The translations under genes were made by a program, and so were the position numbers. Below are positions 23,877 to 42,372 of a stretch of 64,000 bases of DNA, piece by piece. How positions within the stretch are numbered: position 1 is the first letter of the stretch; each line of letters begins with the position of its first letter. The notes below the pieces were generated by a model that saw nothing but the letters and a program-made list of their open reading frames with translations, had not been told where the DNA came from and did no database searches. Source of the DNA: an uncultured Chloroflexia bacterium (GTDB lineage Bacteria; Chloroflexota; Limnocylindria; Limnocylindrales; CSP1-4); NCBI GenBank assembly GCA_963794525.1, contig CAWCEC010000002.1, positions 25,364 to 89,363 of the forward strand. The letters are read 5' to 3'.

Positions 23877-24407
23877 TCAGATCCCGCCGAAGTCGCCGCC
23901 GCCGAAGTCTCCCCCGCCGAAATCGCCGCCACCGAAGTCGCCGGCGTCCCCGCCCATGTCGCCGCTCGCGACGTCGCCTTCGCCGAACTCGCTACCCGAG
24001 TCGCCGGTGTCGGCCGTGTCGCCACCCTGGTCGGCAGTCTCGCCGCTCGCGCCGGCGTCATTGTCGAAGAACGTCTGCGCCGCGGCAGTCCCGATGAAGC
24101 TCGCTGCTAGGGTGGCGAAGAAAAAGCTGCCGAGGCCGAAGCCGGCCCCGCCGCTGCCCCACGCTCGCTCGATCGTGCCGGGCTGCCGGACCTCCGCCCG
24201 CGTCGCCGTCCGGGCGAGCGACGTCGGATCGTCGCCGCGGATCTCACTTGGTGGCACGACCTGGGCGAGTGCCGCGAGGGCCTGGCGGCGCTGGTCGGGC
24301 GTGAGCCTGGCGAATGCTTCCTCGTGGGCGCGCTCGATCTCCTCGGGCGGCGCGGTCTGCAGCATGTATCGGTATCGGGCGAGCGCCTGCTCGTCGGTGC
24401 GGTCCAT
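23877..24407 (-). CDS. hypothetical membrane protein with C-terminal (GDFGG)n tail
   Basis: ORF 23877..24407. Helical N-domain (ALARYRYMLQTAPPEEIERAHEEAF), one TM (FGLGSFFFATLAASFIGTAAA), then an acidic Gly/Asp tail ending GDFGGGDFGGGDFGGGDFGGI. Confidence 0.7.
   Translation of the reverse strand: MDRTDEQALARYRYMLQTAPPEEIERAHEEAFARLTPDQRRQALAALAQVVPPSEIRGDDPTSLARTATRAEVRQPGTIERAWGSGGAGFGLGSFFFATLAASFIGTAAAQTFFDNDAGASGETADQGGDTADTGDSGSEFGEGDVASGDMGGDAGDFGGGDFGGGDFGGGDFGGI
23883..23942. repeat. 4 x 15-bp in-frame tandem repeat encoding the GDFGG tail
   Basis: Units at 23883, 23898, 23913 and 23928 (cccgccgaagtcgcc and variants). Confidence 0.9.
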
Positions 24408-24511
24408 GACAGTTCCTCCTTGGTCGATCGGGATGCACCGACCGCCGCGACCAGTGTGCGCTCGACCACCAGAACTCGCCCGCAGGCTATGCCCGGACTC
24501 TGCTTGCCTGA

Positions 24512-25420
24512 CTACTTGGGCGTCGCCTGGATCGACGCCGGCGATGACCCCGCCGATGGCGACGCGGCCGGCGCCCAGAGTCCGAGTGCGGCGGTCTTCG
24601 CCGAGTCCTGGGCCTGTGTCAGGAGGCTCGCATACTTCTCATCAGGCGGGATGGTGGTGGCCTGGGCGAACCCGCGGCGCACGAGCTCGAGGTTGGCGAG
24701 CACCATCGTGCCACCAGGTCCGACGAACCACACGTGCCGAAGCAGGCGGCCGAACTGGTCGGTGTCCGAGACGTCCTGCTCGAGGTACACCTCGCGGCCA
24801 TCGATCAACGACCGATTGGCGGCGGTGGCCGCGTCGGCCCAACCCTTGATGGTCGGGTCCGTTGCGTCGGGCTCGGGCGCGTCGATGCCGATGTAGCGAA
24901 GCGCGTATTCCTCGCCGTCGACGTCGACGCGGATCGTGTCGCCGTCGGTCACGCTCATGACGATCGCGTATCGAGTCTCGCCGGTGGGACCGAAGGTCGG
25001 TGCAGCCGGCGAGCCGGACGCGCCGGACGCCGGTAGTTCACCGACGAGCGGCGAGCCGATCGCCGTACTGGGCTGTGCCGTCGACCCGCTCCGCTGGCCG
25101 AGCGCATTCGAGATCGCGCTCAATGCCAGCACGCCGGCCAGGGCAACGATCGCGACGCGAACGACGGCCCGTTCGCGGGACTTCGGCCGCTCCGCGACGA
25201 CCGTTTCCGGTCGAACGGTCGTGACGATATCGAACATCGACGGTGCGTCCGAGATCGGCGGGGGTGCCTGCGGCAAGGCCACCTGCCCAGGCACCGCGGA
25301 CGCCGCCCGAGCAGCCGGCGTCGTGAGCTCGTCGAAGTCGAACCCACACTTGCTGCAGAAGCGGAAGAACCCAGTGCGTTTCGTCCCGCAGGTCGGGCAG
25401 AAACGTCCCTCGGTAGTCAT
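24512..25420 (-). CDS. membrane-anchored thermonuclease (SNase-like) with N-terminal zinc ribbon
   Basis: ORF 24512..25489 trimmed to ATG 25420. CPTCGTK...CSKCG zinc ribbon, a TM (VVRVAIVALAGVLALSAI), then an SNase fold (VTDGDTIRV...LRYIGIDAPE...GRLLRHVW...LELVRRGFA). Confidence 0.82.
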   Translation of the reverse strand: MTTEGRFCPTCGTKRTGFFRFCSKCGFDFDELTTPAARAASAVPGQVALPQAPPPISDAPSMFDIVTTVRPETVVAERPKSRERAVVRVAIVALAGVLALSAISNALGQRSGSTAQPSTAIGSPLVGELPASGASGSPAAPTFGPTGETRYAIVMSVTDGDTIRVDVDGEEYALRYIGIDAPEPDATDPTIKGWADAATAANRSLIDGREVYLEQDVSDTDQFGRLLRHVWFVGPGGTMVLANLELVRRGFAQATTIPPDEKYASLLTQAQDSAKTAALGLWAPAASPSAGSSPASIQATPK

Positions 25421-25529
25421 GAAGTGGCGGTGCGGCGGAGGTGCATGCTCGGAACCCCGGAGTCGCGTCAGTCGGGCGACGGACCCCAATCCTACGGGCT
25501 CGGTCCAGTCCGCACATTGGACCGTCTAA

Positions 25530-25933
25530 CCACCAGGGCCCGCGTCCCGCCGCGAGGGACACCCGACGAACGGGCCGGTCGCCACGGGCTGGTTGTCCCG
25601 CCGCGAGGACACCCGACGAACGGGCCGGTCGCCACGGGCTGGTTGTCCCGCCGCGAGGGACACCCGACGAACGGGCCGGTCGCCACGGGCTGGTTGTCCC
25701 GCCGGGAGGGATACCCGACGAACGGGCCGGTCGCCACGGGCTGGTTGTCCCGCCGGGAGGGACACCCGACGAACGGGCCGGTCGCCACGGGCTGGTTGTC
25801 CCGCCGGGAGGGACACCCGACAACGGGCCGGTCGCCACGGGCTGGTTGTCCCGCCGGGAGGGACACCCGACGAACGGGCCGGTCGCCACGGGCTGGTTGT
25901 CTCGCCGCGAGGGACACCCGACGAACGGGCCGG
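25530..25933. repeat. intergenic tandem array, about 7.9 units of 50-51 bp (MIRU-like minisatellite)
   Basis: Unit starts (GTCCCGCC) at 25544, 25595, 25645, 25696, 25747, 25798, 25848 and 25899, i.e. spacings 51, 50, 51, 51, 51, 50, 51. Units differ by a few SNPs/indels. Each unit contains GGGACA...TGTCCC and CCCG...CGGG pairings. Confidence 0.95.
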
Positions 25934-25950
25934 ACGTCCGTCCCGAGCGA

Positions 25951-26412
25951 CTAGGCCCGCCCGGACCGTCCCGTTTCCACGATCCGCTTCAGCCGCTTCA
26001 GGTCGCCCTGGACGGACCGCCGGACCATCCAGCCCATGAGCGCGCCGGGCATCGCCCCGTACATCCCCTTCGCATCGCCGCGGATCCGGATGCTTGCTCG
26101 TGTTGCGCGACCGCCGTCCATCGGCTCCAGGTGGTAGTCGACATCCATCGGGAACGGGCTCTCCAGGGCGTGCATCCCCACATGGCGGGCGGGCTCGAAC
26201 GCCTCGACCTGCATCAGCCACTCGATCGGCCGACGCATGAAGCCGCCGATGCGGCGCACTCGGGAGCCTTGCGCGATGGGCAGGTCCGTGACGAGCTCGA
26301 CCCGGTCGACGCCGCCGATCCAGTGAGGGTCCCGGCGAGGGTCGAATTGGACGGCCGCGACCGCCTCGGGTGCGGCCGCGATGTCGGTGGTGGCTGTGAC
26401 ATCGATGGCCAT
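25951..26412 (-). CDS. SRPBCC-superfamily protein (polyketide cyclase/dehydrase-like)
   Basis: ORF 25951..26493 trimmed to ATG 26412 (MAIDVTATTDIAAAPEAV...). Size and pattern match the START/Bet v1-like fold. Confidence 0.7.
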   Translation of the reverse strand: MAIDVTATTDIAAAPEAVAAVQFDPRRDPHWIGGVDRVELVTDLPIAQGSRVRRIGGFMRRPIEWLMQVEAFEPARHVGMHALESPFPMDVDYHLEPMDGGRATRASIRIRGDAKGMYGAMPGALMGWMVRRSVQGDLKRLKRIVETGRSGRA

Positions 26413-26420
26413 CGGTCGAC

Positions 26421-26843
26421 TCAGAAGTCGAAGAACGGCTGGGGCGTGCCCGTCTCGGCGTACCCCTTGAGCCGCAACAGGATCTGCGCCCACGCCGGCG
26501 TGATGATCGGGATCACCGGGTTATCGGGCTCGTAGTCGCGGTGGCTGAACAGCAACCGGGTGCCCGGGCCGTCCGGGTTGCCACCGATGTCGAACCGGAT
26601 CGTCGTGCCAGCCCACCATGGCGGGAAGCTGCCCGTCACCCATTCGACGCGGTCGGGGGTCTCGCGGACCGCGAACTCGAACGGTTGCGTGGTGTCAGGG
26701 AACGAGGTCTCCAGCTTGCCATCCCCGAGGTCGGAGTGGGTCGTCCACCACGACCTGATGCCGTCCTCGGTGTGCAGCGCACGATGCACGGCATCCGCCT
26801 CCGCATCGATGTCGAACTGCATGACCACGTGGTAGTCGCCCAC
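26421..26843 (-). CDS. SRPBCC/AHSA1-domain protein
   Basis: ORF 26421..26843. VHRALHTEDGIRSWW and a C-terminal WAQILLRLKGYAETG are typical of Aha1-like SRPBCC proteins. Divergent from the ArsR gene. Confidence 0.75.
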   Translation of the reverse strand: MGDYHVVMQFDIDAEADAVHRALHTEDGIRSWWTTHSDLGDGKLETSFPDTTQPFEFAVRETPDRVEWVTGSFPPWWAGTTIRFDIGGNPDGPGTRLLFSHRDYEPDNPVIPIITPAWAQILLRLKGYAETGTPQPFFDF

Positions 26844-26922
26844 GAATGTGTCCTCCTCGACCTCCGTATTTTAGCCATCGCTATAGTACGCGCGGTGCAG
26901 CGCTATTTCAAGGGAGACTAAA

Positions 26923-27255
26923 ATGCCGTCGATGGATGGCCTGCAGGTTGTCGGCGACGCGACTCGGCGCGAGATCCTCCGGCTGGTGTGGGATCGCGAG
27001 CGGTCAGCCGGCGACATCGCCGACCGCTTTCCCGTCACGTTCGGGGCGGTGTCGCAGCACCTCGGCGTGCTTCGGGAGGCGGGCTTCGTGACCGTTCGCC
27101 CTGAGGGCAATCGACGCTTCTATCGCGCCGACCATTCGGCGCTCGGGCCGCTTGCCCGGGTGCTCGAGGCGATGTGGACGACGTCCCTCGATCGACTCGC
27201 GACTGCGGTCGAGGCCGATCCCCACCCCAAACCAAAGCGGCGAACCCGACGATGA
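26923..27255 (+). CDS. ArsR/SmtB-family transcriptional regulator
   Basis: ORF 26923..27255. GDATRREILRLV...SAGDIADRFPVTFGAVSQHLGVLREAGFV wHTH. Confidence 0.9.
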   Translation: MPSMDGLQVVGDATRREILRLVWDRERSAGDIADRFPVTFGAVSQHLGVLREAGFVTVRPEGNRRFYRADHSALGPLARVLEAMWTTSLDRLATAVEADPHPKPKRRTRR

Positions 27256-27686
27256 CCGCTGAAGGCGACACCATCCGGGTCGAGCGCCGCATCGATGCGC
27301 CGCCGAGTGCCGTGTACCGCTACCTGACGGAGTCGGAGCTGTGGTCGCGCTGGCAGGGCGAGTCGGCCGATCTCGACCCGGTCCCGGGTGGTCGGTTCCA
27401 GGTGCGAATGGGCGAAGACCAAGTCGTGGAAGGCACGTTCGTCGCCGTGGAACCCGGCACGCGCGTGGTGATCACGTGGGGATGGCGTGGCCACCCGCGG
27501 ATGCCGCCCGGCACCACCACCGTCGAATTCGAGCTCGTCGCGGACGGCCCGGGCACGATCGTTCGGCTGACCCACCGCGGCATCCCGATCGACGACCTGC
27601 CGCTCCATCGCCAGGGCTGGGCGGTGTTCCTCCCGCGTCTGGCGACAGCGGTCACCGGTGGCGATCCGGGCCCGAACCCGAGCTGA
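27252..27686 (+). CDS. SRPBCC/AHSA1-domain protein
   Basis: ATG 27252 inside ORF 27174..27686, ATGA overlap with the ArsR stop. RIDAPPSAVYRYLTESELWSRW, LTHRG...GWAVFLPRLA. Confidence 0.8.
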   Translation: MTAEGDTIRVERRIDAPPSAVYRYLTESELWSRWQGESADLDPVPGGRFQVRMGEDQVVEGTFVAVEPGTRVVITWGWRGHPRMPPGTTTVEFELVADGPGTIVRLTHRGIPIDDLPLHRQGWAVFLPRLATAVTGGDPGPNPS

Positions 27687-27695
27687 CGTCAGTCG

Positions 27696-42084: not shown

Positions 42085-42372
42085 CCTGTCCCGCCCGTCG
42101 TTTCGGTCGTGGGGTGATTGGGGCGACGGCTACGCCGCGACGGGCGGCCGTTCGTTCGTCGGTTCGGTCATGGGGTGACCGAAGGGCGTGCCTGTGCCGG
42201 CCGGTGGGACACACGACCGACGAGATGCGCTCCGTTGGTCGGTTGTCCCGCCCGGCGGTCCATACGACCGACGAGATGCGCTCCGATTCGTCGGTTGTCC
42301 CGCCCGGCGGGTCCATACGACCGACGAGATGCGCTCCGTTGGTCGGTTGTCCCGCCCGGTGGGAACGTGAGC
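42085..42372. repeat. intergenic tandem array of about 51-bp units related (in inverse orientation) to the 25530-25933 array
   Basis: Three well-conserved units between 42200 and 42372 (…ACGACCGACGAGATGCGCTCCGTTGGTCGGTTGTCCCGCCCGGCGG…) preceded by degenerate copies from ~42085. ACCGAC...GTCGGT and GGGACA/GGCGGG...TGTCCC/CCCGCC stems. Confidence 0.85.

Follow-up and report, generated by a model that had tools for sequence, protein, structure and literature searches.

The 64,000-nucleotide window (C2:25364-89363) belongs to a six-contig, 3.17-Mb metagenome-assembled genome (MAG) of an uncultured Chloroflexota bacterium, with a G+C content of 69.5% and a completeness of 80%. Within it, an intergenic tandem repeat, designated array A, lies between a gene for an SRPBCC protein and a gene for a nuclease-domain protein. 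Array A is very probably a tandemly reiterated palindromic repeat of the repetitive extragenic palindromic (REP) type. It belongs to a family of arrays whose successive palindromes are separated by 51, 61, 72 or 82 bp, that is, by steps of about one turn of the DNA helix. The features of the array A locus and of a second family locus in the window are as follows.

25539..25933, plus strand: tandem array A, comprising eight palindrome cores, each with a tail, and seven complete linkers; the period is 51 bp, apart from two units of 50 bp.
25742..25792, plus strand: example of a full unit (unit 5) in the order GG, palindrome, tail and linker, from the sequence, the unit listing and a covariance-model match.
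25744..25766, plus strand: example of the 23-nt palindromic core, GTTGTCCCGCCGGGAGGGACACC, with outer ends of the GTT/AAC type and the centre CCSGG, from the sequence and family covariation.
25767..25777, plus strand: example of the conserved tail, CGACGAACGGG, whose reverse complement bears the CGTC tag beside the stem, from near-invariant columns of the core alignment.
25951..26412, minus strand: SRPBCC (Polyketide_cyc2) gene (PF10604, E 4e-11), the stop codon of which is 18 nt from array A, placing the array in the 3′ region of the gene.
24512..25420, minus strand: gene for a protein with zinc-ribbon, transmembrane and staphylococcal-nuclease domains (PF00565, E 3e-14), downstream of array A, with its ATG at 25420.
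25421..25515, minus strand: upstream region of the nuclease gene, ~84% identical to that of the congener G021 by blastn and alignment; array A starts right after it.
25517..27693, no strand assigned: 2.17-kb lineage-specific segment, from synteny blast, junction alignment and Pfam.
42151..42368, minus strand: second family locus in the window, a lone core (TTCGGTCA...TGACCGAA plus CCGACGAACG) together with a 52-bp x 2.9 array, oppositely oriented, from Tandem Repeats Finder (TRF) and the sequence.

Array A was recovered by TRF as the sole tandem array at the locus (window 25544-25933; period 51, 7.7 copies, 97% matches, score 724) and was covered by eight matches to the covariance model R1 at C2:50902-51292, which corresponds to window 25539-25929. 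An earlier sequence-only reading had described an intergenic, non-coding array of palindromic units of minisatellite size at this position, and this description was correct as judged by TRF, ORF and Pfam checks, and by covariation. The eight unit starts that it listed matched exactly when the sequence was read again, and its flanking landmarks, a thermonuclease start at 25420 and the stop of the next minus-strand gene at 25951, agreed with the open reading frame (ORF) list and with Pfam. The two 50-bp units that had been noted are present in the sequence as assembled: units 2 and 6 are each one base short, with unit 2 missing one G of GGG so that it reads GCCGCGAGGA rather than GCCGCGAGGGA, and unit 6 missing the G of GACGAAC. 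The sub-variants were seen as described, with GCCGGGAGGGA carried by units 4-7 and the single GATACCC by unit 4. Unit 8 is incomplete and starts GTCTC. When array A is read as hairpin followed by tail, the strand is antisense to both flanking genes; under the REP convention, in which the CGTC tag comes first, it is sense.

Open ORFs cross array A in several frames. Genes showed GC3 values of 0.84-0.88 and GC2 values of ≤0.57, whereas all frames of array A were flat at 0.71-0.82, and Pfam returned no match for any ORF across the array. A coding function for array A was ruled out on these two grounds, in keeping with the earlier non-coding call.

The sequence-only reading had suggested a genome-wide search for further copies, which placed array A as one of about nine family loci. 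Five further arrays with periods of 51, 52, 61, 61 and 73 were detected by TRF, making six arrays in all in addition to solitary cores. Each array in this genome has its own unit remainder, the common part being the hairpin followed by CCGACGAACG. A covariance model of the 36-nt core retrieved about nine loci (~30 units) and nothing else convincing; the matches at the second locus in the window were at C2:67514-67731. The arrays are arranged head-to-tail with two to eight copies, and the cores within one array all have the same orientation. The spread of the family was counted in a collection with one genome per species. Of the 131 species genomes of the genus, 34 contained the same core. With a broader model, matches were obtained throughout the family to which the host belongs, in 131 of its 401 genomes and 33 of its 49 genera, together with a few single matches in a second family of the class. 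Among 185,579 species genomes, the exact pattern of the GTTGTCCC-type core had no matches and that of the TTCGGTCA-type core had one, in a congener. As exact core patterns are nearly unmatched elsewhere, individual stem variants are species-specific. A loose hairpin-plus-tail search that allowed one mismatch was flooded by chance matches, and searches with the exact tail and with covariance models were used instead.

The anatomy of the unit was established with a gap-free alignment of 36 representative cores from different arrays that was not fitted to any model. The core consensus is CCGTTCGGTCACCCGGTGACCGAACCGACGAACGA, and the 23-nt palindrome within the unit reads GTT, covarying bases, CAC-CSG-GTG, covarying bases and AAC. 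The stem begins with the pairs G·C, T·A and T·A, continues with seven more and encloses a loop of 3 nt; leaving both terminal pairs, the outermost and the innermost, unpaired gives an 8-bp stem that starts T·A, T·A and a 5-nt loop. Across the 10-bp stem, 86.7% of cells were paired, compared to 71.2% in column shuffles, none of 500 of which reached the observed value, and to 26-43% when the partner was slid. Compensatory double changes were evident in seven of the ten stem pairs, and the pair 9-19 was U-A in 18 sequences, C-G in 17 and unpaired in none. The outer GTT/AAC, one C-G pair that is invariant (C10, G18), the centre CCSGG and the tail CSGRCG..GA are conserved and adjoin the covarying bases. 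In reverse complement, the tail gives CGTC in 23 of the 36 cores and CGYC in 31, one or two bases away from the stem. The dyad symmetry continues beyond the core, as 76-96% of units have complementary bases at offsets of 13-15 and 20-21 from the centre, with an overall mean for the extended dyad of 0.60 compared to 0.20-0.54 when slid. The element is an imperfect palindrome of about 43 bp, and arrays differ chiefly in the length of the linker (about 8, 18, 29 or 39 bp).

A string of hairpins in a transcript also had been proposed from the sequence of array A. The palindromic units were substantiated by family covariation, but unusual stability of the hairpins was not observed, as the 421-nt stretch with the array folded no more stably than dinucleotide-preserving shuffles on either strand (z +0.5, +1.4). 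The G+C content is 76%, for which reason hairpin formation alone is no evidence; folding energy gives no signal, and it is the family-wide covariation that supports the hairpin. In a test of the folding strand, G·T mismatches outnumbered A·C mismatches on the strand with the tail 3′ (46 vs. 32), the counts being non-independent. A second hairpin within the linker, suspected by eye, was discarded when linker folds gave a mean z of 0 against shuffles. Rfam yielded nothing relevant at E values up to 1 in window 24000-27500 and no gathering-score match in four related loci, and a scan for promoters and terminators detected nothing at array A and no T-tailed terminator. ARAGORN found no tRNA or tmRNA, and a tRNA-like reading was dropped. 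A CRISPR array was rejected, as the 'spacers' are identical within an array, the ends are conserved between arrays and the neighbors include no cas-like gene; likenesses to integron attC sites and to parS or DnaA boxes were weighed and then rejected or retained as mere resemblance.

The chromosomal parS palindrome is tGTTtCAC-GTGaAACa. The commonest core of the family, cGTTcggTCACcsgGTGAccgAACc (for example at window 42151-42186 and in L029-L030), has three extra bases per arm, and the likeness is one of resemblance only.

Centre-to-centre spacings of the palindromes form four classes of 51, 61, 72 and 82 bp, which equal 5, 6, 7 and 8 multiples of 10.2-10.3 bp. With 36 curated arrays the best modulus was 10.45 bp (Rayleigh R = 0.95). 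When the four classes were treated as only four data points, random lengths fitted a 10-11-bp lattice about once per thousand trials (P about 0.001). This conservative test was adopted because weak similarity between linkers of the same length means that the arrays may not be independent: identities were 0.6-0.75 compared to 0.47 for shuffles, for which the 95th percentile was 0.65. Clustering by linker similarity was dropped, as short GC-rich linkers share high background identity and single linkage merged almost all of them, and a palindrome-centre finder for periods was noisy in GC-rich DNA and served as a cross-check only.

The same classes emerged from an unselected listing of 46 spacings between neighbors on the same strand, which comprised 51 bp (seven), 60-61 bp (15), 71-72 bp (13) and 81-83 bp (six) as well as five larger values. 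In this listing 25 of 26 loci were within 1 bp of 51, 61, 72 or 82 bp where 5.6 were expected, and the best modulus was 10.3 bp (R = 0.90) with none of 3000 null trials as good. Length classes recur in other genera, 51 bp in g9 and g11 and 61 bp in g9 and g22, and two very unlike linkers in one array (L042) each give 82 bp. The earlier conjecture that array A is a phased protein-binding array, with 51 bp as about five helical turns, is strongly and unexpectedly supported in its phasing, by the family periods of 51/61/72/82 bp only; protein binding is what we infer from them.

The gene context of 47 loci was assessed with a crude gene caller based on GC3, which allowed 43 to be classified. Divergent gaps held seven of these and the remaining 36 were non-divergent; the gene 5′ of the element, in the hairpin-then-tail orientation, was co-oriented in 29. 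Many arrays begin 3-40 nt past a stop codon. REP elements are reported to be distributed in the same way, in non-divergent gaps after stop codons (PMC3733652). Orientation relative to genes was mixed, and its assignment is soft, as 11 loci scored nearly equally on both strands, which a long palindrome would be expected to do. The genes that other family arrays flank are unrelated and include those for a hydrolase, uvrA/uvrB, a carbamoyltransferase-like protein and an FtsH-like protein. The Y1/IS200/RAYT transposase domain (PF01797, Y1_Tnp) was absent from all 131 genomes of the genus, whereas six control genomes were positive.

Arrays are retained at certain sites between species. When the flanks of relatives were mapped to the genome, two of its arrays, C and D, were matched by arrays with different stems at the orthologous sites in other species. 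The orthologous intergenic site at C5:88206-88631, upstream of the carbamoyltransferase-like gene, has a unit length of 61 bp in G021 and of 72 bp in G024, whereas G124 has a single unit there and this genome about four degenerate ones, so that the four species differ in period, copy number, stem and apparent orientation (L033, L034, L054). In three species (G097, G135 and G098; L041, L043 and L048) an array is positioned directly 3′ of the same gene for an FtsH-like membrane ATPase of ~650 aa. Short stretches of the flanks at the FtsH-like site also match C3:367.5 kb and C5:279.3 kb here, which probably are paralogous genes.

The favored interpretation, to which a probability of roughly 0.45 is assigned, is that the arrays serve, at the level of double-stranded DNA, as phased docking lattices for a putative protein, with an added role in RNA possible. 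Successive palindromes would be spaced by 5, 6, 7 or 8 helical turns (51, 61, 72, 82 bp; about 10.2-10.3 bp per turn), placing all of them on one face of the helix for cooperative binding by a putative protein with dyad symmetry. A pitch of ~10.2-10.3 bp per turn is typical for DNA that is wrapped on a protein surface. Arrays after stop codons probably are transcribed too and may buffer or end transcripts. Growth and shrinkage would proceed by slippage or unequal recombination, with no dedicated transposase. At this locus array A, 18 nt past the SRPBCC stop codon, separates the ArsR/SRPBCC cassette from the conserved nuclease upstream region. The protein binding, the insulating or terminating role and the mechanism of growth each are steps that we infer. 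The docking lattice is preferred because neither an RNA hairpin role nor plain slippage explains steps of one turn, which a dyad-binding protein that interacts with its neighbors would do. The model predicts that the duplex palindrome is bound and that cooperativity is lost upon half-turn insertions. It is more doubtful whether the arrays are an undescribed class of architectural element, set by geometry more than by sequence, in which a lattice at gene boundaries is read by a putative protein; if so, they would insulate neighboring transcription units or organize local supercoiling.

A number of observations weigh against the docking lattice. Units that are off the lattice (50, 55-60, 63, 70 and 98 bp) occur, rarely, inside and between arrays. 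Each length class may be one old lineage, with the 10-bp steps arising from ancestral duplications of ~10 bp and not from selection for phase. Stems vary within one genome (GTTGTCCC, GTTCGTTC, TTCGGTCA, TTGGAAC), which fits poorly with a single sequence-specific protein, unless only the conserved bases at the outer ends and the centre are read. Variable stem positions are strictly complementary, which indicates that an intrastrand hairpin forms at some stage, in RNA, single-stranded DNA or a cruciform, and that the duplex is not all that is recognized. Among four fetched loci, two of which share a site, three sites that hold arrays in other species are 48-112 bp in length here and have no remnant, and such clean absence implies that no individual array is essential. 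The family is low-copy, with about nine loci in this genome.

A function solely at the RNA level, as hairpins in 3′ untranslated regions that block 3′-to-5′ exonucleases or that terminate or insulate transcription, with the DNA spacing functionless, is considered rather unlikely. The compensatory changes in the stem would be accommodated readily, as would the positioning of arrays near the 3′ ends of ORFs with few in divergent regions, which is as described for REPs (PMC3733652), the co-orientation of the 5′ gene with the element in 29 of 43 loci and the placement of array A, which has genes of one orientation on both sides and immediately precedes the conserved upstream region of the nuclease gene. 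The slight excess of G·T over A·C mismatches points in the same direction, but the asymmetry is weak and its counts are non-independent. Moreover, the period steps of ~10.3 nt are left unexplained, orientation is mixed with 11 loci near-equal on both strands, no T-tailed terminator is evident and array A does not fold better than shuffles.

It is unlikely that the family is a neutral or selfish minisatellite in which a palindrome was seeded at few sites and spread by slippage, with the four length classes as old sub-lineages that were frozen by concerted evolution. Clean presence or absence between species at syntenic sites, the speed with which copy number, stem sequence and period change at orthologous sites, the low copy number, the weak leftover similarity of same-length linkers and small deletions in units inside arrays all are consistent with such a history. 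However, four arbitrary lengths would match a 10-11-bp lattice in only ~1/1000 trials, and exact lengths have been kept across at least four genera with linkers near background identity. The array D site, the C5:88 kb site and the one that follows the FtsH-like gene also each retain arrays in three or four species, and conserved bases (C10, G18, CCSGG and the tail) adjoin bases that covary freely.

An assembly artefact, or a repeat that was collapsed or expanded in a long-read MAG so that the copy number and 50-bp units are wrong, is very improbable. The genome is a six-contig MAG of 80% completeness and the missing base of unit 2 is a homopolymer deletion, but dozens of genomes that were assembled independently have comparable arrays at numerous loci, orthologous sites included, and a short-read contig breaks exactly at the edge of array A. 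These independent arrays and the short-read break make the existence of array A certain, in distinction to its exact copy number and its 50-bp units.

The term 'MIRU-like' that had been applied to array A holds as a loose analogy only. Mycobacterial interspersed repetitive units (MIRUs) and variable-number tandem repeats (VNTRs) share with array A tandem intergenic units, here 51 bp in a 40-100-bp range, a position between co-oriented genes and internal variants, with a copy number that presumably varies. MIRU units reportedly carry small, co-oriented ORFs that overlap the stop and start codons of the flanking genes, and are said not to be defined by a covarying palindrome, which is the defining feature of the family here. 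Units of array A lack such a coupled ORF: the stop codon is 18 nt outside the array, there is no start codon or ribosome-binding site, and any reading frame is disrupted by the 50-bp units. Nor are the family periods of 52, 61 and 82 bp divisible by three, and orientation to genes is mixed. The host is of a different phylum from mycobacteria, probably is no actinobacterium and had no WhiB gene that was found in the genome. Membership of, or direct homology to, the MIRU/VNTR repeats is hardly credible on this evidence, and REP-type elements reiterated in tandem are the better comparison (PMC3733652). No more credible is a type III toxin-antitoxin system with a ToxI-like antitoxin RNA array that is processed by the downstream nuclease: array A is directly upstream of the nuclease-domain gene on the minus strand, but that protein is a zinc-ribbon/transmembrane/staphylococcal-nuclease fusion (PF00565) and not a ToxN/AbiQ/CptN/TenpN endoribonuclease, its orthologs in G021 and G024 are without an array, and the remaining family arrays flank unrelated genes.

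The closest described elements are those of the CGTC-tagged REP superfamily, which lack a transposase and lie mostly 3′ of ORFs, where the gap between genes is unidirectional or convergent (Di Nocera et al. 2013, PMC3733652). Their stems are 8-9 bp with A·T at the first and second positions, the loop is 4-5 nt and an unpaired 3-nt CCA tail follows; the tag has the variants TGTC and CCTC (PMC3733652). Head-to-head dimers predominate, head-to-tail dimers are 'negligible' and clusters are 'rare', and 'grouped' REPs consist of a REP and flanking DNA that are tandemly reiterated (PMC3733652). The family shares with these elements a short GC-rich palindrome, possibly with a comparable unpaired CGTC-type tag at one end and comparable outer A·T pairs, heterogeneous stems, a mainly post-ORF location in unidirectional or convergent gaps, and the lack of a dedicated transposase; the architecture of grouped REPs, a reiterated REP plus flank, is that seen here. 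In contrast, the stem here, counted with all its pairs closed, is 10 bp and its loop 3 nt, the tag stands off from the stem by one or two additional bases, the flank that follows the stem reads CCG/CGG in place of CCA, ~30 units at nine loci compare with tens to thousands, and the units form head-to-tail arrays of two to eight copies. The phylum also is one without reported CGTC REPs, and quantisation of the period is undescribed for REPs. The family is best named REP-like with a CGTC-type tag, and not a member of CGTC-1 to CGTC-4, because stem and loop length, CCA tail, high copy number and head-to-head dimers are found here in part or not at all.

Other palindrome-based systems provide further parallels. 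The sopC locus of the F plasmid consists of 12 x 43 bp, each with an inverted repeat that is bound by SopB. It is the closest mechanistic analogy for the proposed docking lattice in having tandem units with one dyad-symmetric site each at whole-turn spacing, but the arrays here are chromosomal and multi-locus, have no adjacent partition genes, bear variable stems and would be bound by a putative protein only. In Neisseria, dRS3/NIME (Neisseria intergenic mosaic element) repeats consist of a 20-bp palindrome that alternates with spacer repeats of 50-150 bp. These resemble the arrays in being intergenic and in the alternation of palindrome and spacer, and differ in that the sequence is unrelated (ATTCCC-N8-GGGAAT) and that NIME spacers are from several repeat families, whereas those here are identical within an array. 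Moreover, dRS3 is a target for phage and insertion sequence integration, and nothing similar was seen here. The bacterial interspersed mosaic elements (BIMEs) of E. coli bind DNA gyrase and integration host factor (IHF), and serve as an analogy for what a docking lattice might do. dRS3 is classed as CGTC-1 and is among the few CGTC families in large clusters (PMC3733652). BIMEs are described as regularly spaced intergenic palindromes that act both as protein-binding sites on DNA and as structures at RNA 3′ ends (PMC2817692, PMC3333891). Regularly spaced palindromic units between genes are common to BIMEs and the arrays here; in BIMEs the REPs alternate in orientation, have defined linker motifs and are linked to REP-associated tyrosine transposases (RAYTs), whereas here the repeats are direct and low-copy and the genus has no Y1 transposase.

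REP-type repeats are poorly understood, and whether they are RNA hairpins, protein-binding DNA or parasites still is debated. The family offers a clean natural experiment, as it is low-copy, lacks a transposase and has the same palindrome at orthologous sites across many species. Spacing that shifts only by whole helical turns as the linker drifts is hard to account for by RNA function or slippage alone. In practical terms, the arrays break short-read assemblies and mark the gain or loss of gene cassettes in an abundant uncultured soil lineage.

Array A is the left edge of the 2.17-kb lineage-specific segment and abuts the conserved nuclease upstream region. The segment consists of array A, two SRPBCC-type genes on the minus strand, and then an ArsR regulator gene and an SRPBCC/AHSA1 gene on the plus strand. 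In the congeners G021 and G024, which are without the segment, the nuclease gene and a gene for a luciferase-like oxidoreductase are divergent and about 100-125 bp apart. A search for orthologs of the SRPBCC protein found no syntenic ortholog, and the nuclease gene, whose ortholog in G021 is 79% identical, was used for synteny instead. An independent short-read contig of 2123 bp from Logan carries the same four-gene cassette and the start of the oxidoreductase gene, and stops 47 bp past the SRPBCC stop codon, just inside array A; a break at this point is the expected effect of a repeat on short-read assembly. The cassette provides a clear case of gain or loss within a promoter region.

Certain other arrays coincide with changes in gene order. 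Array F of this genome (C3:363781-363930) has one flank in common with an 82-bp array of G017 (L056, G017:C1:858412), whose other flank maps to a different contig (C2:138 kb), indicating a rearrangement breakpoint at the array. Several cases of arrays at synteny breakpoints were noted. In L050 (G097:C5:406300-411000), ~1 kb between uvrB and uvrA contains many weak-to-good core matches on both strands as well as a small membrane-like ORF of 103 aa, and may be a large cluster that has decayed.

Tandem repeats of other types also are present. A 15-bp x 4 in-frame repeat at window 23884-23943 encodes (GDFGG)4, the C-terminal tail of a 176-aa protein beside the nuclease gene. Long, near-perfect tandem repeats are located at C2:855622-856789 (285 bp x 4.1, 99%), C4:294488-295957 (378 bp x 3.9, 97%) and C6:80821-87144 (282 bp x 10.6); these are of coding size and probably specify surface proteins with repeat domains.

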